From a virus (Duplodnaviria; Caudoviricetes), in the IMG/VR virus record IMGVR_UViG_3300020409_000068, positions 1 through 25,941 of that record: 25,941 nt of DNA; one strand, written 5' to 3'. The notes below the pieces were generated by a model. That model worked only from the letters and a program-made list of their open reading frames with translations, ran no database searches and was not told the origin of the DNA. A program made the translations under genes and the position numbers. Positions 986-25,941 of this stretch are shown piece by piece. The first letter of the stretch is position 1; the number at the start of each line of letters is the position of its first letter.

Positions 986-988
986 GTG

Positions 989-996: not shown

Positions 997-1022
997 GATT
1001 TGAATTAGTATATTTGCTCATA

Positions 1023-1160
1023 ATGAAGTTAAAAAATACGCCATTTGGCGGTTTTAAAGATGGTTTTATCGAAAAACCAGAAGATGATGAGAAAATTTTG
1101 CGTGAAGTTGTTGGTGATGACGCTAATGATGAGAAAAGAAAACAAAATTTAAGTGAATAA
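1023..1160 (+). CDS. Small charged hypothetical protein, 45 aa (MKLKNTPFGGFKDGFIEKPEDDEKILREVVGDDANDEKRKQNLSE)
   Basis: Translated by hand. Its stop overlaps the gp25 start (TAATG, 1158-1162), and it follows a late-promoter motif. Confidence 0.7.
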   Translation: MKLKNTPFGGFKDGFIEKPEDDEKILREVVGDDANDEKRKQNLSE

Positions 1161-1576
1161 TGGCAAAAGTAGATCGTAAACTTGTCAATAAAACTCCTTT
1201 CAAAGATATCAGTTTGTCTTTTAGTCGCCATCCTGTGACAGATGACATTGGTGTCTTTGTAAATGAGGATGCAATTAAGCGATCTGTAACTAATTTGGTA
1301 AGAACAAGAGTCGGTGAAAGATTTTATCAGAAATTATTGGGTAGTCCTCTTGAGGATTCCCTATTTGAGCAACAAGATAGCGACACTGCCGCGGTTTTGG
1401 AAGACGATATACTGCTTTTACTTGAAAACTACGAACCTAGAATCAAAAATGTTGACGTAGTTTGCTCATATGACTTGGAATCAACTGATATGAACGTCAG
1501 AATTTCTTACATTATTGCTGGATTGCAGTTTCCTCAACAAAATATAGAATTTATTCTTCAATCAACTAGAGTATAA
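1160..1576 (+). CDS. gp25: Baseplate wedge subunit, T4 gp25-like (GPW/gp25 family)
   Basis: 138 aa with FKDISLSF..HPVT.DI, AIKRSV.NLV.TR.GERF, LG S.L...LFE and YEPRI. It sits directly before gp6 with a TAATG overlap. Confidence 0.93.
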   Translation: MAKVDRKLVNKTPFKDISLSFSRHPVTDDIGVFVNEDAIKRSVTNLVRTRVGERFYQKLLGSPLEDSLFEQQDSDTAAVLEDDILLLLENYEPRIKNVDVVCSYDLESTDMNVRISYIIAGLQFPQQNIEFILQSTRV

Positions 1577-3450: not shown

Positions 3451-6400
3451 ATGACCGATATCAAAAGAGTCAAAATCTCTCATGTGATAGAATCACAGAT
3501 TCCTGAATTTCTCGTTCAGGAATCTCCTTTATTTGTCAAGTTTTTAGATCAGTATTATCAGTCTCAGGAACATCAATCTGGTTTGGCTGACTTGGCTAAC
3601 AATTTACCTGAGTATAGAAAGATAGGTGCTTTCAATAATGAGAGTTTAGTGCCTTCTACAACTCTTACATTGAATGCTTATGCTGGTGACACCTCAATAT
3701 CAGTAACATCTACCACTGGTTGGCCAGATACTTACGGTTTATTGAAGATAGACAATGAGATTATCACATATACATCTAAAACCTCTACAGAGTTTCTTGG
3801 ATGTGCTAGAGGATTCAGTGGCATCGATCAGATATCAAGAGAAGATGCTGCAGAGTATCTTAACTTTGCAGACACTGAAGCTGAAGTTCATTTAACTGGT
3901 GCAACAGTAATAAATTTAAGTAATCTGTTTCTACAGACTTTCTTTACTAAATTTAAAACAGAATTTCTTCCTGGCTTTGAAAATAGAAATTTTGTAAGTG
4001 GTACATCTGTTACCAACATACTTACAAGAGCAAAAGACTTCTATATGTCAAAGGGAACTGACTCTTCATATCAGATTCTCTTCAAATTATTGTATGGTGA
4101 GGATATTGAGATTCTCAAACCAATCGAGAATACGATTGTACCCTCAGATAACGTATATTTCAAAACTAAACACGTTCTTGTTGAAAATTTGTTTGGCGGA
4201 CAACCATTAGAGACTGTAGGTAACTTCTTATATCAAGATATTGCTGGAATTGGAACTGCAAGTGCTTCAATTTACAATGTAGAGTATCGACCAATCAATC
4301 AAACTGATTTTTACGAGATATCACTTGACTCAACATCATTTGATGGGTCATTTCAAGTGCCTGGTAAAACTAAAGCTCTAGAAGAGACACCAACAACCGC
4401 TGAGACTCTAGTTGTTGACTCTACAGTAGGATTTGGACAAAGTGGTACTCTTTTAGTTAAGCCAAGAGTTGGTGAAAACTTTATAACACTAAGATATACT
4501 GATAAAACGATAAATCAGTTCTTAGGAGTTACTGGTATTACGACTTCTCTAGTTTTTGGTGCAGATATACTTGAAAATAAGTTAGCATACGCATATGCTG
4601 GATTTGGGCAAACATCTTTACTCCAATTCAGACTTGTAAACGTAATTGATGAAGTAGATACAAGTAAATCTACAAATATGCAAATTGGGGACAATCTCAA
4701 GTTGCTTTCTTTCGGTAAAGACTTAGGAGATAATCCAAAATTCAATAATTGGATATACAACATCCCATCAAGTCATGATATTTCAAATGTTAGTCAAGTA
4801 AACGTCAATACTTACAGAATTAACATATTTGACTCTTGTGTTTTCTATATTGACGAAATTTTAATTGTAAAAAATGATAATGGCGATTCATCTGAAATAA
4901 GGGTCAAAGAAATTGAATATGCGTCAACAAACGTAGAACAAATTTATTCAAATACCATAGTTGTTCAAGCAACTGGTGGTATTCCTGTAAATGCGTCTGT
5001 AATTACTAAAACTGTTACTAAAGCATCTCATAACTCTAATTACTTTACAGAAGTTTCTAATTTTCCTGTTGGTATTCAGAATAGTTACTTAGACAAGAAT
5101 GAAGAGTTCTTCTATGTCACTTCAGCTGGTCTACCTAACTATCCTATCTTTGCCACAGATAATAAGGTCTTTATAAAGACAAGCACAGTGGAAGCCACAG
5201 GGTCTGACGGCACTCCTCTCTTTGGTGGTGGGTTTACTTACACTATTCAGTCTTTTGACTCCACCAACGTCACTCTGGCGTCGCCACCACCTCTTCCACA
5301 TAACTATGTAACTGGTGATAAGATTTATTGGGACAATACAACAAATAGTGGAATCAACACTGGTGTCTACTTTGTAACTGCAATCAACCAAACTGAATTT
5401 TATCTATCATTCAGTGGTGCTGACGTATTTGCTCAAAAGTATATTGCTGTAAGAACTGGAACCTCTGGACAATTCATATACAAATCTGGATGGGAAAATA
5501 AAACACTAAAGAATCAAAAGATAATTAGGAAATATCCATTTAATAGAACTTCTAATTTATTTGATGATCCTAATAAGAGAAGGATAAACAATAGACCAAT
5601 AGGTCTAATGGCTAATGGTGTGGAATTGTTTCCTCCTACAGTTTTTGATGAACAGATATTTCATGGTAACATTACTGAAATAAAAGTAACTAATCCAGGC
5701 ACAGATTATGATGTAATATCAGGCCCTCCTGTGGTTATCAATGATGCTCAAGGAACTGGTGCAATTGCTCATGCCAACATAGTAGGATCTTTTAAAGAAA
5801 TTAAATTAGTAACGCCTGGTATTGGATATCAAGAAAAGCCAAAGATTACTGTAGAAGGTGGTAATGGATCTGGTGCTGTTTTAGAATCTAATCTTGTTAG
5901 AGGCGCTATTGTTGCTAACTTTAAAGCAGATGGATCTTCTGTTAATACTACTGCTGAAACTGTCACCTTCCAAGAGAGACATAATTTTGAAGTAGGTGAA
6001 GGTATAGTTTACGATGCTAGAGGAAATACTCCTATCGTCAACGTTGTTAGTGGATCTACTTACTATGCCAGTGTCGTAGATGAAAAGACAATAAAATTAC
6101 ACAATACACCAGAGGATGCAAAAACAGGTATCAATACCGTTAATATTGGAAACATAAGTTTTGGTTTCCATAAGTTTACTTCTTTGGAAGCAAAAAATAC
6201 AATTACAAAAATCTATGTAAAAGAATCTGGTTCTGGATATTCAAATAGAAAAGTAATTGTTCCAGCAAGACCTGTAAATGGAGATGTTCAATCTGGTATA
6301 AGCACATCTGATGATTATATTCTTGCATATGATCACCATTTCCAAAATGGTGAAATTGTTGAATACTCTTCAACAGGAACAGTGGCAAGTGGATTGTCTA

Positions 6401-9400
6401 CAACAACTCAGTACGCTGTAAAAGTTATTGACACTAACAAATTCAAGTTATGTGATGTTGGTGTTTCAACACAGAGAAATCTTACGAATTATAACAAAAA
6501 TAAAACCGCTGTAATTCGCAGTTTGGGTAGTGGTAAACATACTATAAAGTATCCACCTATAGTGGTAAAGATTGAAAGTTTATCTGCTATTGGTAGCACA
6601 ACGGTAATACAACCTGAGATAGACCCACTGGTTCTAGGATCAGTTGACAACGTATATCTTGAGGAAGGTGGTATTGGATATGGCTGTACTAACATCATGG
6701 ACTTTCACAGAAGACCCAATGTTGGTATATCAACTATTGTATTCCAAGCTTTACTAAAACCAATTATTGTTGGCGGATCTATCGTAGATGTTCAAATTCT
6801 TGCTTCTGGTCAAGGTTATAGAGAAGACTCTGACATCAACATATACAGTCCTACAGGAAGCTTTGCTGATATAAGACCAATTATTACCAACAATAGAATA
6901 ACAGGTGTTCAGATCCTTGATGGTGGTGTTGGATATAGAAGTAGTGATACAACTCTAGATTTAAGAAACAGAGGTAAGTCTGCTAAGTTCATTGCTAACA
7001 TAAAAGAGTGGAAAATCAACCAAGTTCAGAAAAATGAAAATATCATTAGTGATGAAGATTCTATATTAACTAAACCAAGTACAAATCCAGAATATCAATT
7101 ACAAACTATAGGGATGTATCCTCCACAAAAGTTGAGATATCAACTTGGAGATAACATTGATTCTGGTAACTTAGAAACACCTAATGCTTTCCACTCTCCA
7201 ATATTGGGATTTGCTTATGATGGTAATCCAATCTATGGCCCATATGGTTATCAAAATCCAGACGGAGGTGCTATCAGAAGATTGCAGTCAGGGTATATTC
7301 TTAATACTGCGATACTATCGGGTATAAGACCTCCTGGCTTTGCTTTTGGATACTTTGTTAATGATTACATCTTTGACAACTCTGGCGACCTAGACGAGTT
7401 CGGTGGTAGATATTGTGTCACCCCACAGTTCCCTGATGGAACATATGCTTACTTCTACAGTGTTGATATTGATTCTAGTGGTGTTGCTAAACCAAAATAC
7501 CCATATCTACTTGGAAGTAAATTTAAAGATACTCCTATAGAGGAAAACTTTGTAACTTTCTTCAACCAAGACATTGATATTATTTCTAGAAATCTTACTA
7601 GAAACATATCGCCATACTATCTAACATTTGGTAATTCTAATTATGAACTTATAGATGATGTTAGAGATGCACTGAAACAAGAGTTTGAAATTACAAAAAC
7701 TAGAAGTGCTGGTATTACATCTGTTACTGTATTTGCTAAAGGTGATGGCTATAAGATAGATGACACTCTATCTTTGGATAATACTGGAACTAACGGATCA
7801 GGTACAAATATTGTAGTAAGTGAAATACTAGGAAAGCAAGTTGACACTGTAGAAATAGGTGTATCAACATTTGTCAATACTACACTTAGATTAAACAAAA
7901 AAGAAATTATAGGTGTTACGACAGAGCCACACGATATCATTGATGGTGAAACTGTACTAATAAGTGGTATAAACACATCTCAGTTCACTGAGTTTAATGG
8001 TACAAAAAAAGTTTCTGTTGTAAGTAGATCTGTAGGTTTAACAACATTCTTAGATAACGTAACTAACACAGGTGTAAGCACCTCAATCTTTGTTACTGAT
8101 ACAACTGGGTTTGCTCCTAGTGACACAATAGGTATTGGAACTGAAAAATTCATTGTTACTGGAGTAGACGAACAGTTCTCTAGATTATTTGTAAATAGGG
8201 AAAACTTTGTTGGTGCTGCTATGACTCATGCAGCTGGAACTAACAATGTTATACTGAAACCCAATAAGTTCTCTTTCCCTGTTGGCAATTCAACTGTAAC
8301 TAGATTTACATTTGAAAATTATATCACTTACTTCAATCCACAACAAACAGTCGGTGTTGGATCTACAGGAACTCACTATACGTTGCCACTTACAGGTTTA
8401 AGTACAGTACAAACCATAGAAAACAGATTTGTACCACAACAAAGAATCTACATCAAAAATCATAAGTTCTTTACTGGTCAAAAACTTGTTTATAACATGG
8501 GTATTGGTGGAACATCTCTTGTTTGGGCAAAAGTCGCTGCTGGTGCAACATCTGGTGTTGGAACTGAAGTTTTGCCTGATGGAGATGTCTATGCGATTAA
8601 TTTTGAACAAGATTATATTGGTATAGCAACTCTAGGATTCCCTACAACTGGTGATGCTGTGTGGTTCTACAATGTTGCATCTAATTCTGGATTTGCACAT
8701 TCTCTTGCAACTACTTTTGAGAAAGTAAATTCTAAAGTTGAGAAATTCTTTGGAAAAGTAGGAGTTGCATCGGATCATGGACTAGAAACTGGAGATATAA
8801 TAAGAATAGACGCTTTACCTAAAGATACTGAATCCACAATCATTAGATATGACCCAGTTCTTGCTAAAGTAACTACAAAACGAGTAGGATTCACATATAC
8901 AAGTTTTTCTGCTGATCTAACTGAAATAAACATCAATGATCATGATTTACAGAGCGGCGATAAGGTTGTTTACTATGATAATGGAAATACAATCGATGGA
9001 TTGATCAATAATGAGACATATTTTGTTCTTAGAGAAAATACCGACTTTATAAAACTGTGTAAGTACAAATCTGATGTATTTGACTCTAATCCAATTTCTA
9101 TATCAACAGTAACGACATCGAGTGCTAACAATTTAAGTTTCCTTGCTAAGATTAATCCAGCACTTACCTTCACTACTGGTAATACTGTCACATTTGATGT
9201 TTCTGATCAAAGTTTGCTTGACATGAGATTAGACTTCTTTAGTGACATTAATTTTAATAATAAACTAGATGTTAATGGTACAGAAGCAACAGGATTTAAC
9301 ATTACTAGATCTGGAATCTCTGGAAACGTTGATGCTACAGTTACTATCAAGACAGATACTGATTGGCCAAGTAAAACCTTCTATAATCTTACACCTGTAG

Positions 9401-12400
9401 TTCCTTCCGATGCCAGAAAGACATTTGGATCTTCTGATACTGATGTAACTGGTAGAAACAACATTACATTCAATAATACTGTAATTAGAAACGAACATGT
9501 CATAATTAAGACTGATGATACTAACTTTAGTTTCAATTTGAAGCAAAGACCATTAGAATCTCAAAAATTTGTTTCTAGAACTGGTGTAAGTACGATCACA
9601 TACAGTACAACTTCTCCAACTGCTAGAGGGCCTATCTTTAATACTAAGATAAACTTCCCAGGCAGAGGATACACCATATTACCAAGAGTTATTGGTTTTC
9701 AGAGCTCTCAAGGTAAAGATGCGATTGTAAAAGTATCTTCTCCAGATATTGGCAAGATTGATCTTATTGAAAGGATAAAAGATGGATTTGATTATCCGAC
9801 TGATCCTACTTTACTTCCATTCCTTAGTGTTCCTGCCATTGTTGAAGTAAGTGGTATTGCTAGGATGGATGAAATCCAAGTAACCGATGGAGGAAGAAGA
9901 TATAATCAACCACCCACACTTGCAGTTAGAGGAAATAGTAATGTGCAGATTGCAGCACATGTGGTAGGTGGATCTGTTGATAAAGTAGAAATAATCAAGA
10001 ACGCTTTTGAATTTAAAGAACCACTCAGTATCATTACAACTGATAACTCAAATGGTTATGATATAGACAATATCACTCATAGTGGAACTACTGTTACTGC
10101 TGAGTTGTTATTAGATGCACAATTTAATATACCAGTAACAACTGGATTCGCATCTACCGAAACCAAGTTACCTTTTGCTATAGGAGACAAGGTATTTGTT
10201 GAGGGTTGTAGATTGAAACCTGATTCAGTGCTTAATGGAGATGCAAACTTCAACTCTGCTGATTACGACTTCTCATTCTACACAGTTACAGGTGTTAATA
10301 CATCAAATGCAACTATTGAGTTTGATATGGCAAATGCACCTGGCATTTCAACAGTAACACTAGGAACATATGACGATGACTTTACATTAGGATCTATCGT
10401 AAACTTCAACGATATGGCGAAGTTTAATATGACTATCATTGAAGATGCTAAATTCTTATCTGGAGAAAAAGTAACATCTACAAGATTTGAAGGATTTGTA
10501 GCGGAGAATGGTTGGAATGTTAATATTGGTCAACTAAGACTTAGAGATACTTTAGGAACTTTAGCATCTGGTGATGTTTTATTTGGTGAAGTATCGAAAC
10601 TAAAAGGAGAGGTAAGAGATGTAAACAAATTTAGCATTGATACCACTCTTGGGGTTACTAGAGACAAGGTTTCTAAGAATGACATGAATATTGGTATTCT
10701 TAATGATTTCAGTCAAAGATTATCTGACAACTACTACTTCCAGAAGTTCTCTTATTCAATCAAGAGTAAATTGCCATATGATACTTGGAAAGAGTCTGTA
10801 AAATCTATTGTTCACCCATCAGGTTTCTTAGAGTTCTCTGATCTTATTGTAGAGAGTGATCCTATTGTAAATGCTCCTACTGTAGGGATTGCCAAGTCCA
10901 CCAACATGAAAGTTCAAGCAGTTGACACCAAAGTTGACTTGATATTGAATATTGATAGTGATATGTACATGGGTAAGAGAGATAATTTTGCCATAGTCAC
11001 CGAAGATGATCCTTTACCTGATGGATCGGTTCAAAGAATTTTCTTCCCAGAAGGCAGACCAATCAAGAGTTTCATTATGAACAAGACTAATAAGGTCTTG
11101 AATTTGGATGATATCTCCTCTGGTTTTAATGGCAGACATGATAGAACAGGAACTCTAGTTGGTAGTAAACAGTTCCAACTTTCTACTGGTGGAAAACCAG
11201 TATTCAAAAAATCATTTGCTGCAGCTGGAGTATTCACTGACGTAGATCTTTTACTTAACGTTATACAGATACAAAACCATGATTTCCAAACTGGTCAACC
11301 AGTTAGATTAAATACTCAGGGTGGTGATAGGATAAGTATTGCAACTACATCTCATACTACAGGGCCAAAGGACATTGTTATGTCTGTTGTAACATCTGGT
11401 ATTGGTGGAAGTTCAATGTATGAAAACGGATATAATGTTCAAATTCCAGGCCCCGTAACAGGAACTGCCGTAACAGAAAATCCTCCAGGCGCTCTATTCA
11501 GAATATATGGATTTGGCAATGCAGATGGAGGTGTTCCTGGCACAGGAGGAAGTGGTAGTGGTTCTATCTTCCAAGTTAAGTTTGACTTTGATCAAACTAC
11601 TGGTCAATGTATATCTACTGCTGTCACTCTAATCAACGGTGGTAGAGATTACATTGTGGGTGATAACGTAAGTATTGCTGGTACATATCTTGGTGGTGCC
11701 ACACCAGCAAACAACTTGACATTCCCTGTAACTAAAACAACAGGATCAAGAGTTGGAATAGAAACAACTTATACTAATATTCCTTCGACTAGTGATGGTG
11801 GTGGATCAGGAGCAACATTCAACGTAAGTAGAGATGGCAACTTAGACATCTCTGGTGTAAGTGTTGTTACTGGTGGAACTGGATATGCAACTACTAATAC
11901 AATCTCTATTGCAGGGACATATATTGGTGGAGTAACTCCAGGCGATAATATAACATTGACTCCTGTAGAATGTGGCGCAGACAAGATGCCTGATTTAATG
12001 TTTGTTCAGAAGGTAGATGATTTGAAATTCAGACTTGCTGGATTCTCTACATCATTACCATTTGATTTTACTTCATTAGGAACTGGTACACATGTGTTAT
12101 CAGTCACTGAGCCTAACAAACAGGCTTTAATTATGGTGGATAATATAATTCAAACTCCACTGACAAACAAGAGACTGGAAGTAACAGTATCTGAAACTGT
12201 TGGTGTCAATACAGAAACTATAACTATTAGTGCTGGAATTGGATCACTTGCTAAAGGTGATGTTCTTAAATTAGAGGATGAATTTGTTAAGGTTCAACAA
12301 ATAGGAGATGCTACATTTGTTAACGCAAGAACAGCAGAAATTGAAAATACTGTTGATAATAATTTCTTCTATGACACCAATAGATCAAACTCCACAGTTA

Positions 12401-12450: not shown

Positions 12451-12451
12451 C

Positions 12452-12459
12452 TATAAATA
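12452..12459 (+). promoter_or_regulatory. T4-type late promoter, perfect TATAAATA
   Basis: Exact consensus in the 31-nt gap between the gp7 stop (12450) and ATG 12482. Confidence 0.85.
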
Positions 12460-12481
12460 AAAAGAAAACGTTTTTTAAGTA

Positions 12482-13504: not shown

Positions 13505-13517
13505 GGGAAACGAGTAA

Positions 13518-16500: not shown

Positions 16501-19500
16501 TAGATTATACAGTCTCTGGAGCAGATTACACACCTTCTGTGGGTGTGATGACAATGAGTATTGGAACTCATGATCTTAGAGTTGGGCAAAGTATCAAGTT
16601 TAGAGATAGTTCATTAGGATTTACTTGTGAGGCTGACCAAAATACTGCGATCAAGTATTATCCAAGATCAAAAGATCCAACTTATAACACTGCTGTTCCA
16701 ATCATAGGTGCGGCTGGAACTACTATTACTGTAAATGCTGGTGTATCAACCATAGTAAAATACAATATTAGATTTGCTGCCTACACTCCAGCGACAGGTA
16801 TTATGACTGTTTCTGTTGATAGGTTGCATAATTTTACGGCTGGTGAGACAATCAAATTTAAAAATGGATCTGTTGCTTTCAAATGTGAGCAAGACGGATT
16901 CCAAAGTAATCACTTCTATCCAAGACCAACTGACCCATATTACGATAAACCAGTAACTCTTGTTAGTGCTGCTGGTACTGAGTTTGTTGTAAATGTAGGT
17001 TCAACAGGTGGAGCAAATACATATCTATTCTTACCTAACCAAGGTGTTGCTGTAGAGGGTGTTATTGCTGGTGGTGACTATCCATATTCATTAGTTGGTG
17101 TTGGAACTGATGCTGTCATAACTGGTGGTGGAGACTATACTCCATACTGGTTCCAAAATGCAACTGCAAATGGAGTAGAAAGACCATCTCAACAAGTTCA
17201 AATTGCAGTGGGTTCATTGAACTTTAAGTGTGCTAAAGATGATTATGCAACTGTTCATGCATATCCTCGCCCTACAGATCCAGCGTACAACACAAATTTA
17301 GGTATTGTATCTGCCACAACTAACACATTTGAAGTCAGAGTTGGTGTTTCTACAATCGAAGAGCGTTCAATATCAACATCCACATATAACCCTGCAACAG
17401 GTGAATTGATAATGAATGTAGGTGCTGGACATTCGTATTATGATAATTCAGCTCATACAATTTCGACGGCAACGTATAATCCTAGTACTGGTGTACTAGA
17501 ACCAACCATTGCAAATCATGGTTTCGTTGCTGGTGAATATGTGAAGTTTGATCTAGAATCTATATCATTCAAATGTGATCAAGATGGATACACTGCAACT
17601 AAAGCATATCCAAGATACTCTGATCCATTCTTGAATGAGTGGTTGCCAATATACAACGTTGGCGTAAACACATTCTCTGTAAATGTTGGTGTATCTACTA
17701 TTGTAAATGCACATTGGTTCCAAAGTGCAACAACAGGTGGTCTTAAGAAAGCAAGAGATACTGTCGGAATCAACACTGCATCAATAATATTCACATGTGC
17801 CAGAGATAACTATGCAACAGAACACGCATATCCTCGTCCTGATGATCCAATAGGTGGCAATGTATCTGTTGGTATTGGTTCTACATCTGCCGATACTATA
17901 ACAATCAATGTCGGTGTATCAACAATAGTTAATTATAACATCTCAACTGCATCATATACCGCAAGTACAGGTATTATGACTGTGTTCTCCAATGTTCACG
18001 GATTCAATGGATCATATCAAAGAAATATAGATTTTGCATATTATGATGCCGTATCTGGTATTCTGACTGTGACATGTGCTAGTCATGGAATGGTTACTGG
18101 TAATAGAGTTCAAATTGCAAGAGATTCACTTAGATTCAGATGTAAGATGGATGGCAGAAAGTCCATCAAGAGTTATCCTAGAAGACACGACCCATCAGAT
18201 CAACAGTGGTTGTCAGTTACAACTGTAGACTTAGATAACTTTACAGTCAATGTGGGAACATCACCTCTAGTCTATCATACTCCCACAAGTGGATCATTCG
18301 ATCCTTTCACTGGGTTGATGACGATTGATATTGGCTCTCACACACTCAAGAAAGGAACTTCCGTCAAATTAAAAACAAATGGATTCAAATTTACCTGTGC
18401 CTTAGATAACCATGCGACATTCCACTATTACCCAAGGAAGTCTGGCATTAATGGCCCAGATCCTGCTTACAACACTGCTGTTAAAATTACTGCTACAACA
18501 GACACTACAATTACTCTGGATGTAGGAACATCATCCAATCAGACTGAACACATATTTGTATCTGCTGTAAACAATTCAGTTATTAGTGGTGGTGCATACG
18601 TTCATACATTTGAAAATGCAGAACTAGGTTCTCTACTAATAGCAAGAGATACAGTTGGTCTTGCAACAAACTCATACACATGGAGATGTTCTCAAGACAA
18701 CTATGCTACAGATCACACATATCCAAGAACAACTGACCCCATACATGATGTAGAAGTTGGTATTGTGACAACCACTCTTGATACATTTACTATCAATGTA
18801 GGTATTACATCTAGAGTTGTTTACAACGTAACTAATGCGACTTATGATGCAAACAGTGGATTGGCTACATTAACCACAGACTCGGCTCACGGATTGTCAA
18901 CTACAACTTCAGTAGGACTGATGACTGGTGGATTGGTTTACTCATGTTCTATGGATCAATATGCAACAGAACATCCTTATCCCAGAACCACAGATCCAGC
19001 ACACAATGCTGCTTTATATCCAACTGCCGTTACATCAAATAATCTTACTCTTAATGTTGGTGTTTCTACTAGAGTAGAATATAATATCAATCATGCCGAT
19101 TATCATGAATCTATTGGTATTATGACAGCTTTCTTACCAGTAGTTCATGGTATTACTACTGCTGCTGGTGTTGGTAGAAATGTCAAGTTAAAAACTGAGT
19201 CAATTTTATTCTCATGTTCTCAAGATAACTACACTACAAAACAATTCTATCCAAAGGGAGGAGATCCTTATTACAATGGTTCACTAATCACCAGAGTCAT
19301 TAATAACACAACCATTGAAACACAAGTAGGCCCATCTACCACACCTAGTTTCTATAACTCTGGTGGTACAATTCAAGGTGTCATACTTGCACCTAGACTT
19401 AATAATAATTCTCCTAGTGGAACTGACTTTGCTGCTGGTGGTACTTTTGTAGACAAGATTATTGATAGTAAAACATATGTTGTTAATGTTGGTATTTCAA

Positions 19501-22500
19501 CTGTAGATCATAACTATGCAAGAGCTGGACTTTCACAACAGGGTAAGAGAATTTCTTCCTCTATTGAGCAAGGATTCTCTGGATTTAATGTCATTGAAAA
19601 ACTAGACAATGCAAGATTCCGTATTGATGCTGGCATCACAACTCAAATTGCTTTGTATAAGAGGGGAGGTGAAATTACTAAACCAGTGTTTATTGATGTT
19701 GCAGAACCAGATCCATACTTCAATAGACCTCTTGAATATACATCAGGCACATCTGGTATCGGAACAAATTCTAAAGTTGATTTCAGAATCAATGTTGATG
19801 GAAACATTTCCGAGTTTAGTGTTCTTGAAGAAGGAACCGCATATAAAGTTGGTGATAGATTAACTGTTTCTGGTATTGCCACAGATCCAAGAGTGGGCAT
19901 AAACACCGAGTTCCAACTCATTGTAGAAGAACTTGAGAATGATACTTTCTCAGGATTCTATCCTGGCCAGTTTATACTCTTTGATGATATTGCTCCGTTC
20001 TTCAATGGAAAACGCAAGAAGTTTACTTTATCTGTAACAACTGCTGGAACAACTGAAATTTTAAGTCTTAAGACTCCAGCTGGTAGTGATATGGATATTA
20101 CAAATAATATCTTTATCTACATCAATGATATTCTACAAACTCCACAATCTTCTTACATATTCAAAGGTAGTAGAGTTATCTTTACTGAAGCTCCAAAAGA
20201 AAATTCTAAGTGTTCTGTATTCTACTTTAGAGGATCTAAGAGAGATGTTGAGACTGTAGAACCAGCACAGTCACTGAAACCTGGCGACGTTGTACAAATT
20301 AAAGAAAATAGATTTGTCAATGATGACATAGATCAGTTCAAGAGAACTGGTAAGAGAATAGTCGCTTCCGATCTTTTGGAAACATTTACATATAATAGTA
20401 TCGGAATCAATACTGATCAAAATGCAGATAGGCCTCTTGCATGGGAAAAACAAAGACATGATCAGATATTATCTGGTGTATTAATTTCTAAAGCAAGACC
20501 TAGTTTGAAGAGTAAAGTTCTTCCTACTACCAGATTAATTAAGAATGTTTCTAAAACTGATGATTCAATATATGTAAGTAATGCTTTCCCAGTATTCAAT
20601 GCTATTGATAAATTACTTCAATCTGAGAGAAATGTTCAGATCTTTGATGACACAGATGTATTACCAGGCATCATTACTTCTGTCGTTTCTACATCATCCA
20701 GTATTTCATCACTATCCATAGGATTTGGTGGCACAGGATATACTAACTTATCAAGTCCAAATGTAGCCATATCAAGTGCATTAATTAAACGCAAAGATCC
20801 AATATCTGCATGGGAGTTCGATCCTATCACAGGTATTACATCTGCTGTAGAATTTAAGGCACTGACAAAAGAGGAACCAATTATTGCTGTTGGTTCAAGT
20901 AGTTTCTACATGAATACTAAGAGTGGATCATTCTGGGAGAGGGGTAGAATTGGATTTGGTGGAACTGTAACATTTAATGGTGTCGGTGTAGGTAACAGTA
21001 ACACATCTACAGTCTACGCAATGGCTGTTGGTGATTATGGTTCTATGGCAAGAGCAGTTTCAATAGGTAACAGTTTGTCTACATGGACTGCAATAGATCT
21101 AAAAGAAGAAAGACAGATTCCAGCTATCAACCAAACCAGTACATTTGATAGTACATATCAGGGCAACTTCCAAGATGTTATTTGGGAAAACACTAGAAAT
21201 ACATGGGTTGCAGTTGGTGCTGGTGGATCTATCTTTACTGCGGTTGGCCTTACAACAGCAGAGGCTTTCAGTCAATTCTCAGGAACACTACAACAACTTA
21301 ATGCAGTATGTTATGGTCAGTCTGAATACATTGCAGTTGGTAATGGTGGTGTAATTCTTGCATCTAATGATGGAACAGGATGGGCAGACAAGACAAGTAA
21401 TACTGTCAATGACTTGAATGATATCATCTATGACGGTAATAAATTTATCGTTGTTGGTGACAGTGGAACTATTGGTATTTCAACTGACAAAAACTTCTGG
21501 CAACCTTGGAGTCAACAGTTACCAGCTGGAACACAACACCCTGCAACATTTGATTTTGCTAAGATTAAGTTTATTGATAATATCTACATTGGAATCAGTA
21601 CAGTTGGTGGATTGTATTATTCATTCGATTTGGCAAACTGGAACGAAAGGCCAATTAGCCATTCAAAAGAGATTCGTGATATTGTAGATACACCATTTGG
21701 TGATTTTGCAAGTCGCAGAGTTATTGCTGTTGGATCTGGAACCACTGTATTCTACGCAGATCCAGTAATCAACAGAGCAACTGCAACTGCATCTGTAACT
21801 GCTGGAGTAATTACATCTGTAACTGTAACTGATGGTGGATTTGGTTATGAGGTTGGTAGTAATCCACCAGTAATCGTTGAAACTGATAAGACTACAAAAG
21901 AAGATGTATTATCAATTGATGCAAAAGGTGACTTTGGTGATATTGTAGGAATAAATACATGGTTGCCAGGCTCTGGTGCTAGACTTCCACAATTGGCGTT
22001 TACATTGAAATCTCAATTCAATGATAACACTAATTTGGGTTATGGTTATTCTTCACTTAACTCTCTTGGAGTTAATTTTACAGGATTATCTAAAGGAGAT
22101 TACTTTACAATCTATGACAGTTCATTAGTTGTTGGACATGCCCTAACAGGTATTACAACTTCAAGTGGTTCTAATGTTGCTGTCGGTATGGTAACTGCTG
22201 GTGATTATCTTGGTGGCGTATTCAGAGTAGAACAAATCACAGCTGGTGATGCGATATCTGGATTAGCAACTGTAACATGTGCTTTCTTACCAGGCCCAAC
22301 ACCTTACGGAAACAACACTATTCAAGTGGGAGTTGCAACTACAGCAACCACTGATACCTTCTGGGGTAAATATAGTTGGGGTAAAATCTATGGATATCAG
22401 AACCGTGCTTCTGGTAATCCACAGGAATTTTTCGTCAATTCAAACAATGGTAATACTGGATTATCTACTGCTCCTGTAGTTTCCAGAAAGAAACCAATGA

Positions 22501-22505
22501 CTTAA
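13518..22505 (+). CDS. Giant virion structural protein, probably the C-terminal half of a split gp7; nested repeat array plus beta-propeller
   Basis: 2995 aa with GAGG at 13503-13506 upstream. It shares repeat types with gp7 (L/FDDI...F.L...I.IN.I.QTP; G.GY repeats) and lies immediately before gp8. It ends in WGKYSWGKI...GLSTAPVVSR, which I recall from cyanophage gp7 C-termini. Confidence 0.8.
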   Translation: MPRTTPGSGALLKPTFDSFYGVSSIEVLSGGTGYAKTDPPKIVIEGTSDPTTEGVFFPVISGIGTISEVIIFKSGLGYYPVFSTSSSSEIAVERGAFGTQKAGHAAGIAYSVFAGDYNIVEDNIFFIDAPYGKSGPVGLETGSSFSGRLFSRKLDPFDEKDKNVILDDISLDFTGVAGTQFTLSENTGVVTALYNSVNTGVDVNNNPFILINNIVQTPGLDFEIVDSDTNKINFLSGVPRAGRIVKVGLQTGSGYYLPTKAAVRVGVGSTGSLEHIQIEGKGQGYRSIPEIYVRSSQGYGASISATLGISTTDSVAISTVTYNHISGIATFNTGAVSHGFEIDDRVRITGAGFTFTPVSAARNINTFGYNYISGIATIGVTGGHYIGVGKNQSRSLLLQGIQVSDGISTYTLREDAYPITEVIDSLNVLVNLGIATQPLSYEGGGTVRAGVDTAIMEGRNVIGFDILGITTNTFETFVGISTFEHQYVGGGVINRAEAGIITNFSIVEGGTGFYRPREISFLDQTPINGITTITAFGNEVGSSINISELDYDSFSGVATIHAAASHGLTTSSVIKLAGVKFNTNVGDITFPSDSQKYYGVTGILSAKNFTVNIGAAMTTTGIHTAQSGIGSFIEFEGHGLETDDFVQTTGIAVTFTSAPAVQVGHVEYDERSGIATVTTRKNHNLTEDDCVVLSGIAFTCDYDPALGVSSALYDNTTGVLTVTTAAPHGYKVGKDVILTGLAFTCAIDGGAKDHYYPRSRSTAYDTSLPITGYAGTALAIDVGISRVKNQYVHRFEEAITGALIYGGDYPHQFLRAEEGALLTGGPYLHEFHSATATSTFAGGDYPHTYVSSDEKTIKVGGDYAHQFVSADTNSVQVVGGSQITPTDGDYSPSTGSLILTVANHGLTGPTQHSITTANYNPLAGILTVTIPNHGFSNGDQVRIADESIGWKCSLDAFTSTKYYPRSTDPISNSWIPISNVSTNTFEVFAGITTRVDYTVSGADYTPSVGVMTMSIGTHDLRVGQSIKFRDSSLGFTCEADQNTAIKYYPRSKDPTYNTAVPIIGAAGTTITVNAGVSTIVKYNIRFAAYTPATGIMTVSVDRLHNFTAGETIKFKNGSVAFKCEQDGFQSNHFYPRPTDPYYDKPVTLVSAAGTEFVVNVGSTGGANTYLFLPNQGVAVEGVIAGGDYPYSLVGVGTDAVITGGGDYTPYWFQNATANGVERPSQQVQIAVGSLNFKCAKDDYATVHAYPRPTDPAYNTNLGIVSATTNTFEVRVGVSTIEERSISTSTYNPATGELIMNVGAGHSYYDNSAHTISTATYNPSTGVLEPTIANHGFVAGEYVKFDLESISFKCDQDGYTATKAYPRYSDPFLNEWLPIYNVGVNTFSVNVGVSTIVNAHWFQSATTGGLKKARDTVGINTASIIFTCARDNYATEHAYPRPDDPIGGNVSVGIGSTSADTITINVGVSTIVNYNISTASYTASTGIMTVFSNVHGFNGSYQRNIDFAYYDAVSGILTVTCASHGMVTGNRVQIARDSLRFRCKMDGRKSIKSYPRRHDPSDQQWLSVTTVDLDNFTVNVGTSPLVYHTPTSGSFDPFTGLMTIDIGSHTLKKGTSVKLKTNGFKFTCALDNHATFHYYPRKSGINGPDPAYNTAVKITATTDTTITLDVGTSSNQTEHIFVSAVNNSVISGGAYVHTFENAELGSLLIARDTVGLATNSYTWRCSQDNYATDHTYPRTTDPIHDVEVGIVTTTLDTFTINVGITSRVVYNVTNATYDANSGLATLTTDSAHGLSTTTSVGLMTGGLVYSCSMDQYATEHPYPRTTDPAHNAALYPTAVTSNNLTLNVGVSTRVEYNINHADYHESIGIMTAFLPVVHGITTAAGVGRNVKLKTESILFSCSQDNYTTKQFYPKGGDPYYNGSLITRVINNTTIETQVGPSTTPSFYNSGGTIQGVILAPRLNNNSPSGTDFAAGGTFVDKIIDSKTYVVNVGISTVDHNYARAGLSQQGKRISSSIEQGFSGFNVIEKLDNARFRIDAGITTQIALYKRGGEITKPVFIDVAEPDPYFNRPLEYTSGTSGIGTNSKVDFRINVDGNISEFSVLEEGTAYKVGDRLTVSGIATDPRVGINTEFQLIVEELENDTFSGFYPGQFILFDDIAPFFNGKRKKFTLSVTTAGTTEILSLKTPAGSDMDITNNIFIYINDILQTPQSSYIFKGSRVIFTEAPKENSKCSVFYFRGSKRDVETVEPAQSLKPGDVVQIKENRFVNDDIDQFKRTGKRIVASDLLETFTYNSIGINTDQNADRPLAWEKQRHDQILSGVLISKARPSLKSKVLPTTRLIKNVSKTDDSIYVSNAFPVFNAIDKLLQSERNVQIFDDTDVLPGIITSVVSTSSSISSLSIGFGGTGYTNLSSPNVAISSALIKRKDPISAWEFDPITGITSAVEFKALTKEEPIIAVGSSSFYMNTKSGSFWERGRIGFGGTVTFNGVGVGNSNTSTVYAMAVGDYGSMARAVSIGNSLSTWTAIDLKEERQIPAINQTSTFDSTYQGNFQDVIWENTRNTWVAVGAGGSIFTAVGLTTAEAFSQFSGTLQQLNAVCYGQSEYIAVGNGGVILASNDGTGWADKTSNTVNDLNDIIYDGNKFIVVGDSGTIGISTDKNFWQPWSQQLPAGTQHPATFDFAKIKFIDNIYIGISTVGGLYYSFDLANWNERPISHSKEIRDIVDTPFGDFASRRVIAVGSGTTVFYADPVINRATATASVTAGVITSVTVTDGGFGYEVGSNPPVIVETDKTTKEDVLSIDAKGDFGDIVGINTWLPGSGARLPQLAFTLKSQFNDNTNLGYGYSSLNSLGVNFTGLSKGDYFTIYDSSLVVGHALTGITTSSGSNVAVGMVTAGDYLGGVFRVEQITAGDAISGLATVTCAFLPGPTPYGNNTIQVGVATTATTDTFWGKYSWGKIYGYQNRASGNPQEFFVNSNNGNTGLSTAPVVSRKKPMT
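14460..19680 (+). repeat. Array of ~17 nested ~90-100 aa beta-domain repeats (Y.P.TG.LT.T...HG...G..V.....F.C..D....H.YPR..DP......I.....TF.VNVG.S...H.F..A)
   Basis: The recurrent motifs YNP.TG, HG, F.C..D, YPR..DP and VNVGVST are read directly from the translation. The copies are diverged at DNA level. Confidence 0.9.
15885..16157 (+). repeat. Five tandem ~18-aa units (Y.H.F..A...A...GG)
   Basis: QYVHRFEEAITGALIYGG / DYPHQFLRAEEGALLTGG / PYLHEFHSATATSTFAGG / DYPHTYVSSDEKTIKVGG / DYAHQFVSADTNSVQVVGG. Confidence 0.9.
20796..21764 (+). other. Seven-bladed BNR/Ycf48-like beta-propeller domain inside the giant protein
   Basis: Blade motifs IIAVG, AMAVG, WVAVG, YIAVG, FIVVG, YIGIS and VIAVG, with Asp-box-like S.DG..W / STD..W / SFD...W turns. 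Confidence 0.8.
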
Positions 22506-22507
22506 CC

Positions 22508-22515
22508 ACTAAATA
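22508..22515 (+). promoter_or_regulatory. Putative late promoter (ACTAAATA) for gp8
   Basis: CTAAATA core in the 35-nt gap, followed by an A-rich leader, 25 nt upstream of ATG 22541. Confidence 0.7.
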
Positions 22516-22540
22516 AAACAAAAAGACTAGTTTTTTTAAA

Positions 22541-24136
22541 ATGCCTGCCATAATATCCGAACAGTTTAGAATTTTAAATGCCGAGACTTTTGTAAAGAGT
22601 TTTGTCGGGGTCGGATCTACTGTTAACAAATACTATGCGTTCATGGGATTACCAAATTCCACAGAACCAAAGGCAGGCGGTACTGCCACATGGCCTACCG
22701 ACACCCCTGCACCTCTAGATGGATTTGAAGAAGAGTATTCTATCAAAGAATCTATCATTGCGATGAAGAAAGTGACTGACAAAGATGTTCGCAGACTTGT
22801 TAGGAAGGTAAAATGGGTTGCTGGTACTACCTATGAAATGTACCGACATGACTATAATATCTACAATTTAACACCAATAACTTCACAAGGTAGTTTGTAT
22901 GAAGCAAATTACTACATAGTGAATGAGGACTTGAAAGTTTACATTTGTCTCCAAAATGGATCAGACCCTGAGAACCCCAAGGGTAGGCCTTCATATGACC
23001 AACCCACATTTGTTGACCTTGAGCCAAGAGCAGCTGGCACTAGTGGCGATGGTTACGTTTGGAAATACCTTTATACGATTAAACCATCAGAAATCGTTAA
23101 ATTTGACTCTATTGAATACATACCTGTGCCCGAAAACTGGGGAAAGGAAGGCGAGACTATTGCAACAAAGGCTAACGCTATAGATGGAAAGATCGAAGTT
23201 GTGGTTGTTGATAATCGAGGCTCTAACTATCAACCAATCTCTACATCTTTTGCCAATGTTCCAATTCTCGGAGATGGATCAGGAGGAAAGGCAACAATTA
23301 CGGTTGATTCTTTCGGAAAGGTATCTGAAGTATTTGTTACTGACGGAGGAGAAGGATATACCCACGGATCAATACAGTTCTTCCCAGGCGCTCCTGGCTC
23401 TGAGTCTGGCGGTGTTCTTGCTAACCTTACCAATACTGGAATAGGAACTACATCTGTTGCAAACTTTAATGTTATAATTCCACCAAAAGGTGGCCACGGA
23501 TATGACATCTATAGAGAATTAGGTGCATATAGAGCATTATTATATTCTAGATTTGAAACATTAGAAACTAATCCCGATATCATTGAAGGTAATGACTTTG
23601 CTAGGGTTGGACTTATAAAAAATCCTACTGTGTTTGGTAGTAGTACAGAATTGCTAGACACTGCCATGGTGAGTGGACTTAAAGCAATCAAACTTGCTGG
23701 AGTTACAACAGCGACTACTTATGCAGTTGATTCAGAAATAACACAGACTGTTGGACTTGGATCTACCGCAATTGGATACGTTGCATCTTGGGATAAAGTT
23801 ACAGGAGTATTGAAGTATTATCAACCAATGGGTCTTGCTTCTAGTGAAACTGGATACAAGATAATTCCATTCACATCTAATCCTGATGCTGGATATGGAT
23901 TAACAATCACTGGATCATCAGTAGTTGGCTCTATATTATCAATTGATACCAATTACAACGGTGTTAGTACCTCAATAAATAATAGGACTTATCAATTAGG
24001 TATGAGTTTTAGTGCTGGTATATCATCAGCAGAATTTAATACCAAATCGGGTGAAATAATTTATATTGATAATCGGACTGCTATTCCTAGATCTGCAAGT
24101 CAGAAGGAAGACATCAAAATAGTACTGGAGTTCTAA
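22541..24136 (+). CDS. gp8: Baseplate wedge subunit, T4 gp8-like
   Basis: 531 aa with MPAII.EQFRILNA..F, W..GTTYEMYRHDY, VYICLQNG, DGYVWKYLYTI, IIPPKGGHG.DIY.ELGA and C-terminal GEIIYIDNR..I.RS.SQKEDIKIVLEF. Confidence 0.93.
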   Translation: MPAIISEQFRILNAETFVKSFVGVGSTVNKYYAFMGLPNSTEPKAGGTATWPTDTPAPLDGFEEEYSIKESIIAMKKVTDKDVRRLVRKVKWVAGTTYEMYRHDYNIYNLTPITSQGSLYEANYYIVNEDLKVYICLQNGSDPENPKGRPSYDQPTFVDLEPRAAGTSGDGYVWKYLYTIKPSEIVKFDSIEYIPVPENWGKEGETIATKANAIDGKIEVVVVDNRGSNYQPISTSFANVPILGDGSGGKATITVDSFGKVSEVFVTDGGEGYTHGSIQFFPGAPGSESGGVLANLTNTGIGTTSVANFNVIIPPKGGHGYDIYRELGAYRALLYSRFETLETNPDIIEGNDFARVGLIKNPTVFGSSTELLDTAMVSGLKAIKLAGVTTATTYAVDSEITQTVGLGSTAIGYVASWDKVTGVLKYYQPMGLASSETGYKIIPFTSNPDAGYGLTITGSSVVGSILSIDTNYNGVSTSINNRTYQLGMSFSAGISSAEFNTKSGEIIYIDNRTAIPRSASQKEDIKIVLEF

Positions 24137-24142
24137 AAGAAA

Positions 24143-25941
24143 ATGCCACAGAATACCAACTTAAATTCATCTCCATATTTTGATGATTTTAATGAGTTAA
24201 AAAATTATCAAAAGGTACTATTCAAACCAGGCTTACCTGTACAGTCTAGAGAACTTACAACACTACAATCTATTCTACAAAACCAAGTAGAAAAGTTTGG
24301 TAAGCACTTTTTTAAAGAAGGTGCTGTTGTAATTCCTGGCCAGATTGCATATGATTCAGAGTATACTTGTGTGCAAATTGATGATAGTCATTTAGGTATT
24401 CCTGTCTCTCTTTACTTAGAAAATCTAAAGAACAAAAAGATTAGAGGCGAGACTAGTGGTGTTACAGCAAAGGTAGAAACATATATTACAAATAGAGAAT
24501 CAGTAAAAGGTGCATACACTCTATACATCAAATATCAAAGCTCTAGTGATACTGATTTTTCAAGAAGAACATTTGCAGACGGAGAAAATCTTTTATTAGA
24601 AGAGGATATGAATTATTCTCTGTCTAGTATCAGATCTGGTGCTAGTTTTGCAACAACAATTATTTCAAATGCAACTGCTACTGGTTCTGCAGCAAAGATT
24701 GCTTCTGGAATTTATTTCATCAGAGGTTTCTTTGTAACTGTTTCAGATTCCACAGTTATCTTGGATCAGTATGGCAGTACACCTTCATATAGAATTGGAC
24801 TTTTAGTTAACGAAGAACTTATAACTGCATCTGCCATAGATAATGATCTATATGATAATGCAAGAGGTTTCTCAAACTTTGCAGCGCCTGGAGCAGATAG
24901 ATTTAAACTATCCACAACTTTAATCAAGAAGTCTCTCACAGATTTGAATGATGAGAACTTTGTAGAATTGATGAGAGTTGAAAATGGTAATCTACAAAAG
25001 TTTGTTAAATCAGGAACTAAGATTAACGAAGTTATTAATGATGAATTAGCAAGAAGAACATTTGATGAATCTGGAAACTATTATATCAAACCATTTCCAA
25101 TAGTTCCTAAAGAACAATTAAATAACAGAATCGGAAATGATGGTGCATATTATTCTTCACAATTAACACAACAAGGAAATGTGCCTTCTGATGATTTCAT
25201 GTGTTTGTCTATTGGGCCAGGAAAAGCATATGTTAAGGGATATGAAATAGAAACTCTCAACACTACAACAGTTGATGTTCCTAAGCCTCGTACCACTCAA
25301 AAAATAGAGAATGAATCTTTACCGTTCAGTGTAGGTAGACAAGTTGAACTTAATCATGTTAGTGGTTCACCTCCAATAGGTGTTGGAACAGATTCTCATG
25401 TAAATCTATTCAATAAAAGAACAGTCACAGTAGGTGAAGGCAATGGAACACAAGTCGGTGTTGCCAGAGTTTATGACTTGAAGTTAAAGAATGTAGGTTA
25501 CGCTGATTCTTCTACTATATTTGAATCATCTTTATATGATATTCAAACATTCACATACTTACAATTAAACACAGCAACTACTGTACCCCTTCCAGCATAT
25601 ATTGAAGGTCAAAATAGTAATGCTGTAGGATTTGCATATACATCTTCTAACAACTCTAGTCAAATTACTTTATACCAAGTAAATGGACAATTCCAAGTTG
25701 GAGAAGAAATTTTTATCAATGGTGTCACTGCCTCTAGAAGTATTACAGAGGTAGAAGATTATGGCATGGAAGATGTAAAACAGTTAGTAGGAAATGATCC
25801 TACCAATTACAAATTTAGTGCAGATGCTGTATTAAATTTGGGTCATCTACTTGCTCCAGTTGCAACTCAATATACAATAAGTGCTAAGTCTGGTGCTGCA
25901 TCCACTATCACATCTCCAAGTGCAAACTTTGCTAATATTGG
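24143..25941 (+). CDS. DUF4815 / VrlC-like large virion structural protein, 3'-truncated by the window edge
   Basis: Absent from the ORF track because no stop falls in the window. It starts MPQNTNLNSSPYFDDFNELKNYQKVLFKPGLPVQSRELTTLQSILQNQVEKFG, then NFAAPGADRFKL, LARRTFDESGNY and GPGKAYVKGYEI in the same frame. This is the usual gene after gp8 in T4-like cyanophages. Confidence 0.9.
   Translation, partial: MPQNTNLNSSPYFDDFNELKNYQKVLFKPGLPVQSRELTTLQSILQNQVEKFGKHFFKEGAVVIPGQIAYDSEYTCVQIDDSHLGIPVSLYLENLKNKKIRGETSGVTAKVETYITNRESVKGAYTLYIKYQSSSDTDFSRRTFADGENLLLEEDMNYSLSSIRSGASFATTIISNATATGSAAKIASGIYFIRGFFVTVSDSTVILDQYGSTPSYRIGLLVNEELITASAIDNDLYDNARGFSNFAAPGADRFKLSTTLIKKSLTDLNDENFVELMRVENGNLQKFVKSGTKINEVINDELARRTFDESGNYYIKPFPIVPKEQLNNRIGNDGAYYSSQLTQQGNVPSDDFMCLSIGPGKAYVKGYEIETLNTTTVDVPKPRTTQKIENESLPFSVGRQVELNHVSGSPPIGVGTDSHVNLFNKRTVTVGEGNGTQVGVARVYDLKLKNVGYADSSTIFESSLYDIQTFTYLQLNTATTVPLPAYIEGQNSNAVGFAYTSSNNSSQITLYQVNGQFQVGEEIFINGVTASRSITEVEDYGMEDVKQLVGNDPTNYKFSADAVLNLGHLLAPVATQYTISAKSGAASTITSPSANFANI

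Follow-up and report, generated by a model that had tools for sequence, protein, structure and literature searches.

Flank-conditional avoidance of CCWGG sites in S-SSM7-like cyanophages points to a probable phage DNA modification at GCY

We analyzed 25,941 nucleotides of DNA from a virus of the Caudoviricetes (Duplodnaviria), namely positions 1 to 25,941 of the IMG/VR record IMGVR_UViG_3300020409_000068. This whole stretch is called the window below. The window has a G+C content of 36.7%, and its open reading frames (ORFs) are T4-like baseplate and virion genes (Table 1). It comes from the baseplate region of an S-SSM7-like cyanomyovirus, and its gene order is the same as that of S-SSM7. The feature studied here is the word CCWGG, every copy of which in the window is CCWGGC or its reverse complement GCCWGG. 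A preliminary description, made from the sequence alone, had listed 25 such sites, and our recount gave the same 25 positions and the same division: 19 sites are followed by C (the one at 21966 also has G before), and six have only G before (4360, 5815, 12785, 13533, 24887, and 25217). The same description could identify no responsible gene in the window, and this was borne out, the ORFs being virion genes only.

Table 1. Genes and short words located in the window.
Feature	Position	Strand	Remarks
Baseplate wedge gp6	1576..3450	+	Phage placement: gp25-gp6 DNA 79% identical to S-SSM7 (Lipsvirus, Kyanoviridae)
T4-like baseplate/virion protein, gp7-like, 2999 aa	3451..12450	+	11 CCWGG: 3970, 4360, 5695, 5815, 7333, 9658, 10339, 11446, 11485, 11536, 11938
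Baseplate wedge-tail fibre connector-like ORF	12482..13504	+	CCWGG 12785; CCATGG 12955
Second large baseplate protein, 2995 aa	13518..22505	+	7 CCWGG: 13533, 14169, 19962, 20280, 20664, 21966, 22290
Second large baseplate protein, other words	13518..22505	+	CCTAGG 14915, 15632; CTGCAG 15688
Baseplate wedge gp8	22541..24136	+	CCWGG 23384, 23393; CCATGG 23664
Virion ORF phrog_358, 3'-open	24143..25939	+	CCWGG 24227, 24335, 24887, 25217; CTGCAG 24687
25 CCWGG	3970..25221		All in-frame Pro-Gly (CCW-GGN); each G before or C after (GCC overlap); site count
4 CTGCAG (3848, 11219, 15688, 24687)	3848..24692		All G before or C after (GCT overlap); word scan
14 GGNCC	103..25219		All GGSCC (contain GCC); GGWCC none; word scan

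The preliminary description had proposed a comparison with codon-shuffled sequences. In 1000 pooled synonymous-codon shuffles of the window, HCCWGGD (a CCWGG with neither G before nor C after) was expected 22.3±2.9 times, and 0 were observed, a value reached in no shuffle. Thus, the unflanked site is absent rather than present at its expected frequency. Meanwhile, HCCWGGC was found 18 times (expected 3.1±1.6) and GCCWGGD six times (expected 2.6±1.4), and the total of 25 CCWGG was close to the 28.3 expected. The glycine codon GGC makes up 97 of the 793 glycine codons in the window. Since Pro-Gly is always encoded as CCNGG and CCGG is absent, the CCWGG sites cannot be deleted, and each has been moved into a GCC overlap. 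There is no CCSGG in the window, and each Pro-Gly has a GGC codon or a G in front of it. In addition, the rule depends on spacing. Opposed CC/GG pairs had G before or C after in 25 of 25 cases at spacing 1, in 10 of 17 at spacing 2, and in 8 of 26 at spacing 3. HCCNNGGD was low (7 vs 16.4 expected), and HCCNNNGGD was at expectation (18 vs 20.2).

Other words in the window are treated in a similar way. The four CCATGG/CCTAGG sites (12955, 14915, 15632, and 23664) follow the rule, as the preliminary description had stated. By the same shuffles, CCGG was absent (0 vs 21.9 expected), and so was GCCGG (0 vs 5.7). GGWCC was also absent (0 vs 14.6), and GGSCC was in excess (14 vs 3.9), so that Gly-Pro in the window is recoded by the same logic as Pro-Gly, with GGWCC out and GGSCC in. 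Furthermore, GAATTC (0 vs 9.3) and TTCGAA (0 vs 8.2) were missing. Some words were low yet present, including GTAC (52 vs 98), AGCT (27 vs 81), TCGA (28 vs 61), and TATATA (1 vs 12.6). It should be noted that Gly-Pro is solved in opposite ways by the window (GGWCC 0, GGSCC 14) and S-SSM7 (GGWCC 150, GGSCC 0), and other lineages use both. At the start of the window (1-591), a 5'-open ORF (phrog_1574) gave a weak glycosyltransferase match (E 4.8e-06); it is a conserved cyanophage gene upstream of gp25.

The available sequence of the source genome is the window alone, and genome-wide tests were therefore run on relatives. In the whole genome of S-SSM7, 196 of 206 CCWGG sites were GC-flanked (G before or C after), and the remaining 10 all overlapped GGWCC. 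In the related record G001, there were 215 sites, of which 208 were GC-flanked, 6 lay in GGWCC, and 1 was a true exception; in G003, the corresponding numbers were 115, 112, 3, and 0. We also collected 80 gp6-anchored IMG/VR loci (853 kb), which are largely orthologous and not independent. Among their 751 CCWGG sites, only 8 were not GC-flanked, all 8 were inside GGWCC, and none was unprotected. Across the orthologous Pro-Gly positions of gp6 and gp7, no unprotected site was found in 628 observations. Moreover, 14 of the 23 orthologous positions seen at least three times use at least two exclusive solutions in different lineages. This switching indicates continuing selection and not one inherited recoding. 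Another 21 named phages (80 kb each), consisting of 19 cyanophages of other genera, Sf-FS3 (a nearer relative of S-SSM7), and HTVC008M, keep many unflanked CCWGG. P-HM2 was considered as a follower of the rule and rejected; it is partly GC-enriched, yet it has many unflanked CCWGG and avoids other words. In the gp6-anchored loci, the CCWGG rule is invariant, whereas the treatment of CTGCAG, CCATGG, and ATGCAT differs by lineage, and some related loci carry unprotected CTGCAG or CCATGG/CCTAGG (L036-L038, L074, L075, L082; L015, L016, L063). More than a dozen words are absent or nearly so in S-SSM7. The CCWGG feature is thus confirmed as real, strong, and clade-wide.

To define the protective word, we pooled S-SSM7, G001, and G003. 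At least six further cores in the clade showed the same requirement for G before or C after: in the pool it held for 76 of 76 CTGCAG, 35 of 35 CCTNAGG, 18 of 18 CYCGRG, 41 of 44 CCATGG, and 28 of 31 CCTAGG, and all six CCATGG/CCTAGG exceptions lie in GGWCC. CACGAG was tried as a further conditional core and rejected (8 of 8 in S-SSM7, but only 22 of 49 when G001 and G003 were added). Because CTGCAG and the other cores obey, GCT protects like GCC. The base before G is free in xGCCWGGD (T 172, C 146, A 105, G 57). Six-base palindromes are purged if their inner bases include GCA or GCG (ATGCAT 0 vs 180, GTGCAC 0 vs 70, TGCGCA 0 vs 48, GCATGC 1 vs 59), while palindromes that contain GCY in this place persist (AAGCTT 51 vs 75, CAGCTG 81 vs 47, GAGCTC 30 vs 29). 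Thus, the sequences point to GCY on one strand, or RGC on the other, as the protective word, and not to GGC. GGWCC, which rescues only as the full palindrome, is a second rescuing context in S-SSM7-type lineages. RGCY alone would cover 12 of the 25 window sites and 65 of the 196 in S-SSM7, and GGCC alone 6 of 25 and 22 of 196. The C of GCY lies inside every rescued core, and CAATTG and YACGTR, which hold only the other pair, are absent from S-SSM7 in every flank. From this, we infer that the marked pair is the C of GCY and its partner G; which of the two bases is marked cannot be distinguished by sequence.

In virulent double-stranded DNA phages, restriction-site avoidance is achieved by silent recoding, which removes palindromic words of 4-6 bases. 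The feature described here resembles this, in that HCCWGGD, CCGG, and GGWCC are all far below the codon-preserving null. It differs from plain avoidance in that a single neighbouring base decides whether a site is tolerated, and many cores are rescued by the same flank. Thus, the avoidance pattern reads out a modification motif. In our opinion, the feature very probably works like restriction-site avoidance relieved by a modification of the phage's own, which would rescue nuclease sites. After replication, the phage would modify the C of GCY (or the paired G), and marking a single strand would be sufficient to block site-specific nucleases, either from the host or phage-borne. Selection by such nucleases would remove CCWGG outside the GCC overlap. 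One reading in the preliminary description was that a host nuclease purges CCWGG unless an overlapping modification at GC/GGC blocks cutting. In outline, the purging and the rescue by an overlapping modification are supported by the clade-wide rule, the unrelated cores, and the switching sites. However, no C5-methyltransferase, TET, or TGT/DpdA-like gene was found in the searched relatives, and the word is not GGC, since GCT also protects.

The searches for known modification genes had the following scope. The Pfam scan took in 100 of 319 S-SSM7 proteins, and the family searches were run on all six frames of the whole record. No C5-methyltransferase (PF00145) was found by profile search in 33 phage records (9 of 14 controls were detected). 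For the N4/N6 family PF01555, there was no match in S-SSM7, G001, and G002, and matches were found in P-SSM2, P-HM2, and P-TIM68; the Dam-type family PF02086 was not searched. The PC/ENV motif set occurred in no ORF of four genomes. TET (PF12851) gave 0 of 4 phage records, with no control passing the cut-off. TGT (PF01702) gave 0 of 5 records with 14 of 14 controls detected, and phage DpdA may be too divergent for this model. There was no Dpd match among 37 candidate proteins, and folE, queD, queE, and queC are missing from the S-SSM7 annotation. Thus, within this scope, the search for C5/N4 methyltransferases, dpdA, folE, and queC/D/E that the preliminary description had suggested found none of them in S-SSM7. 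S-SSM7 gp129, the sole gene with an NPPH motif, was rejected as a methylase, for it is missing from the rule-obeying G001 (99% complete). Two methyltransferase-like genes, gp257 (with a glycine-rich motif like that of S-adenosylmethionine-binding proteins, 94% in G001) and gp254, lie in a sugar-metabolism cluster, and gp257 was found in Lipsvirus records only. Judged by the genes found, the rule appears to be of neither the C5-methylase/TET nor the N4-methylase kind. As a side observation, P-TIM68 has two N4/N6 methyltransferase genes and a CpG observed/expected ratio of 0.07.

The dpdA phages such as CAjan carry motif-specific 7-deazaguanine, which protects against restriction (bioRxiv 10.1101/2023.04.13.536721). 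The preliminary description gave GGC and GA as the motifs of CAjan. The likeness is that RGC, on the other strand, includes GGC. The differences are that AGC also protects and that no TGT-fold, Dpd, folE, or que gene was found in the searches above.

S-SSM7 holds two Mom-like genes: gp282 (PF25680, E 2.5e-32) and gp173 (DruA PF14236/DUF4338, E 1.4e-11). We consider gp173 as the candidate modifier. It is a member of PF14236 only and not of the Pfam Mom family PF25680. In S-SSM7 and most of the carriers viewed, its gene lies between the clamp-loader genes gp44 and gp62. The gene was found in 31 phage records, all of them marine or freshwater cyano- or pelagiphages plus two single-cell viruses, and it has at least 6720 metagenomic relatives. 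A structure model built on a 78-sequence alignment (predicted local distance difference test, pLDDT, 90.8; 66 in an earlier model with a shallow alignment) has a GNAT fold, and all 50 structural matches listed were GNAT-type or GNAT-containing. Mu Mom (8bv8) ranked first (Z 9.7, root-mean-square deviation 3.7, 166 aligned). A sequence search of the PDB with the gp173 family profile returned nothing below E 0.5. The orthologue in S-SCSM2R carries the annotation 'methylcarbamoylase mom' (PMC12801897), DUF4338 has been termed GNAT (PMC10853773), and further GNAT DNA modifiers have been predicted in large phages (PMC7824862). The protein does not look like part of a Druantia type I system, because it gave only a partial DruA match (E 5e-6) and its neighbours are gp44, gp62, and regA, not druB-E. 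Our literature search listed no paper on flank-conditional avoidance in cyanophages and none in which a phage DUF4338 enzyme had been tested, most subscription papers being outside its coverage.

Mu Mom takes glycine from Gly-tRNA and attaches it to adenine within the word SAS (PMC13219725). Like Mu Mom (PF25680), gp173 has a GNAT fold, and the mark proposed here would also be post-replicative, motif-specific, and anti-restriction. In addition, at 3-6 kb downstream of the gp173 gene, S-SSM7, G001, and 13 of 80 gene loci have a lone tRNA-Gly(TCC), which is likewise present in non-carriers. On the other hand, the target in GCY would be C (or G) with no A in the word, and CCAGG contains CAG yet is unprotected. 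Furthermore, gp173 has 374-380 aa and only 12% identity to Mom over the aligned part, and it is a candidate modifier only. With less confidence than for the modification itself, we propose that the modifier would be this DUF4338 GNAT from the clamp-loader operon of the relatives. In this case, N4 of C would be the exocyclic amine that receives an acyl or aminoacyl group, and Gly-tRNA is a possible donor. The whole model, in which GCY modification rescues the sites and the modifier is a protein of the DruA/DUF4338 gp173 family, has in our view an even chance of being right.

The co-occurrence of the gene with the signature was examined with CCGG as the test word, as most carriers of the gp173 gene do not avoid CCWGG. 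Most records in this count were covered in part (80-180 kb), and P-TIM68 (1.9 expected), the window and G003 (gene status undecided), and ten non-avoiding records were left out. Among the CCGG-avoiding records, GC-flanked CCGG was kept in 8 of 9 carriers: Sf-FS3 (8), S-SCSM2R (5), DSL-LC02 (8), S-CAM9 (20), S-T4 (5, plus 2 unflanked), S-CREM1 (5), G001 (5), and G002 (18), but not S-SSM7 (0). It was kept in none of the 4 non-carriers (1 site vs 53 expected), including P-SSM2 (0 vs 9.0), P-HM2 (0 vs 11.7), and S-SCSM1 (0 vs 15.5). The contrast gave a Fisher p of 0.007, with phylogeny ignored and DSL-LC03 scored as non-tolerant. Furthermore, with most carrier records covered in part, the S-SSM7 ORFs that G001 shares and five non-carrier records lack were compared, and gp173 alone among them also occurs in S-CAM9, S-T4, G002, and HTVC008M together. 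The CCWGG rule coincides, in the tree of the gp173 protein, with one clade (support 0.955) and a separate S-CAM9-like branch, in which GC-flanked CCWGG were 4 of 4 in L542 and 5 of 5 in its near copy L544. There are also loci with the gene and the exact signature of the window (all CCWGG flanked, GGWCC 0, GGSCC present), for instance, L102, L103, and L113-L119.

Several observations weigh against this model, both on the side of the word and on the side of the gene. CCGG is absent from S-SSM7 and the window even when G-flanked (0 vs 33), GGSCC is absent from S-SSM7 although it contains GCC, GACGCC is found 2 times vs 48 expected, and two CACGTR with G before, that is, in a GCA context, exist in the pool. 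A position-dependent sensitivity of different nucleases could account for these cases, but this is our assumption. With regard to the protein, the match to Mom is level with those to generic GNATs (Z 9.6 and 9.4), and the best Foldseek match of the model is malonyl-CoA decarboxylase. The gene is outside the window and was assigned through loci of the same signature; no contig joins the window and the gene. The non-carrier DSL-LC03 has one C-followed CCGG (16.7 expected), which was scored as a GGNCC overlap. The metagenome gave a weaker contrast than the records. The 160 gp44-anchored loci comprise 93 without the gene, 29 with it, and 38 undetermined; among those that avoid CCGG, carriers tolerate it in only 2 of 12 (3 vs 27.2 expected), and non-carriers in 0 of 41 (0 vs 54.4; p 0.048). 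The co-occurrence that the preliminary description had proposed to test is therefore seen in the records and only weakly in the metagenome loci, and the gene looks necessary but not sufficient. In addition, the GC rule is seen in the short unrelated contigs L312/L313 and L348-L352, whose available sequence gave no match to DUF4338, and the Lipsvirus-only genes gp035 (HNH), gp193, and gp257 remain as alternatives. Finally, C5-methyltransferases (PF00145) were found in 8 of 101 host-family genomes, which is at odds with many type II systems in the hosts.

As a first alternative, the chemistry might be ordinary, with an unrecognised phage cytosine methyltransferase (N4 or C5) acting on GCY and a second one on GGWCC. 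Marine viromes contain C5-methyltransferases with GpC[C/T] specificity, which are paired with TETs and have a proposed anti-restriction role (PMC8256090). Their word is identical to GCY, but no matching gene was found in the searched relatives. Moreover, SMRT (single-molecule, real-time) sequencing of marine viral genomes detected RGCY (9 genomes), CCNGG (4), and GGWCC (3) as motifs that were called N4-methylcytosine (m4C) and were common among myovirus-like genomes, and methyltransferases and motifs were unmatched except for three pairs (PMC8919816). Signals of the m4C class were also given for CCWGG. The signals speak for the main model as well, since they are of the cytosine class and come from the same virus group as the window; GGWCC is identical to the second context found here, and RGCY is a subset of GCY. 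However, RGCY covers only about half of the window sites, and the accessible passages of that paper name no viruses and describe no conditional avoidance. Within S-SSM7, the methyltransferase-like gp257 and gp254 could be put forward, but the former was found in Lipsvirus records only, both lie in a sugar-metabolism cluster, gp129 is lacking in G001, PF00145, TET, and PC/ENV gave no match in the searched relatives, and PF01555 gave none in S-SSM7, G001, and G002. Thus, we consider a methyltransferase rather unlikely, yet more likely than the other alternatives.

It is less likely, and compatible with a modifier of the gp173 kind, that the pattern is self-protection from a phage-encoded nuclease (e.g., gp035) which attacks host or rival DNA. 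The CCWGG rule is invariant in the clade while the purging of other words is lineage-specific, and a phage-borne nuclease, for example gp035, would be compatible with this. This protein (505 aa; L001:33641-35158) is 86% conserved in G001 and G003 and occurs in no other record examined. Furthermore, EcoRII-C (PF09019) was found in 0 of 151 host-family genomes, where the control was silent and other CCWGG nuclease folds were not searched. But the matches of its C-terminal HNH domain are weak (E about 1e-3 to 1e-4), PADLOC gave no match for it, and the purging of more than a dozen further words goes beyond one phage nuclease. Another conserved Lipsvirus gene is gp193 (L004:9569-10828), which is 88% conserved in G001.

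The second Mom-family gene, gp282, is a quite improbable source of the GCY mark. PF25680 is present in S-SSM7, G001, G003, and the window-like locus L303, and distant homologues are on L312/L313 (CCWGG 12 of 12 GC-flanked) and L348-L352. However, phages with this family and without DUF4338 purge CCWGG with no rescue (SplendidRed 0 vs 27, G024 0 vs 63, and ICP1 3 vs 88, none GC-flanked). phiSHEF2 and G022 also speak against gp282, RaK2 and G021, in which CCWGG is not avoided, are uninformative, and PF25680 is missing from six CCGG-rescuing phages. The gene better fits the rescue by GGWCC/GGNCC, since it is in 4 of 4 records with those overlaps among 33, and we take this as a lead only. In the contigs with distant Mom-family genes, the flank rescues CCWGG (12 of 12 in L313) or CCGG and CGCG.

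GGCC methylases exist in cyanobacteria. No recognisable DNA methylase was found in the searched phages, and the protective methylation might then be supplied by the host during infection; this is highly improbable, because neither GGCC nor RGCY explains most of the sites, the rule tracks the phage lineage (S-SSM7 and Bellamy share the host WH8109, and S-SSM7 alone obeys), and viral motifs are rarely common to prokaryote genomes (PMC8919816). Equally hard to accept is an explanation with no modification, in which a nuclease cuts poorly beside G/C or, as the preliminary description had offered as its second reading, two opposed GG not followed by C are harmful: the rule is indeed strand-symmetric and HCCNNGGD is also low, but the rule is absolute at spacing 1 only, the same flank rescues at least six cores, of which CTGCAG and CTCGAG have no GG, GGWCC rescues as the full palindrome only, S-SSM7 keeps its GGWCC with two such opposed GG, and non-carriers purge CCGG in all flanks.

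Conditional avoidance with other words was seen in further phages. In HTVC008M, which has two DUF4338 homologues and another host, GATC (83 of 83), GANTC (43 of 43), and GTMKAC (44 of 45) occur only with G before or C after. This pattern is present in many relatives and requires a second word, WCC/GGW. In addition, GAAGAG/CTCTTC has G before or C after in 20 of 21 cases in HTVC008M (and L400-L425), and GANTC is the SAR11 methylation word. G024 (L634-L638, 97.8 kb) carries a Mom-family gene and gave no match to DUF4338. All 83 of its CCGG sites are preceded by T or followed by A, GATC is 0 vs 298, and CCWGG is purged; its flank-rescue word is a different one. In S-SRM01 (40001-120000), 60 of 63 CCWGG have T before or A after, and GGCC is mostly GGSCC. 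A Mom-type SAS flank was tried as an account of the A-after rule in G024 and S-SRM01, but it failed because any base follows A. In DSL-LC03, GGCC occurs only as GGSCC (HGGCCD 0, GGSCC 43), both CCGG overlap GGNCC, and the Mom-family gene (L186:808-1978) overlaps with another gene, whose annotation is type II restriction endonuclease.

We tentatively suggest that the DruA/DUF4338 proteins of marine T4-like phages might be motif-specific DNA acyltransferases, which would put an aminoacyl group from Gly-tRNA onto cytosine, with different three-base words for different paralogues (GCY in the present case; WCC/GGW in HTVC008M and S-SRM01). This is possible, but it is well short of an even chance. 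If this is true, part of the orphan 'm4C' SMRT signals seen in marine myoviruses would be due to a new base, and the modification motif could be read from a genome sequence through its flank-rescued sites. One named gene would then link the orphan 'm4C' motifs, a large phage family of undefined role, and the extreme purging of sites. For the cultured S-SSM7 and the SAR11 phage HTVC008M, in which no cytosine methylase is recognisable, a modification motif is predicted here from the sequence. Furthermore, flank-conditional avoidance can serve as an inexpensive screen of uncultured phages for hidden modification systems.

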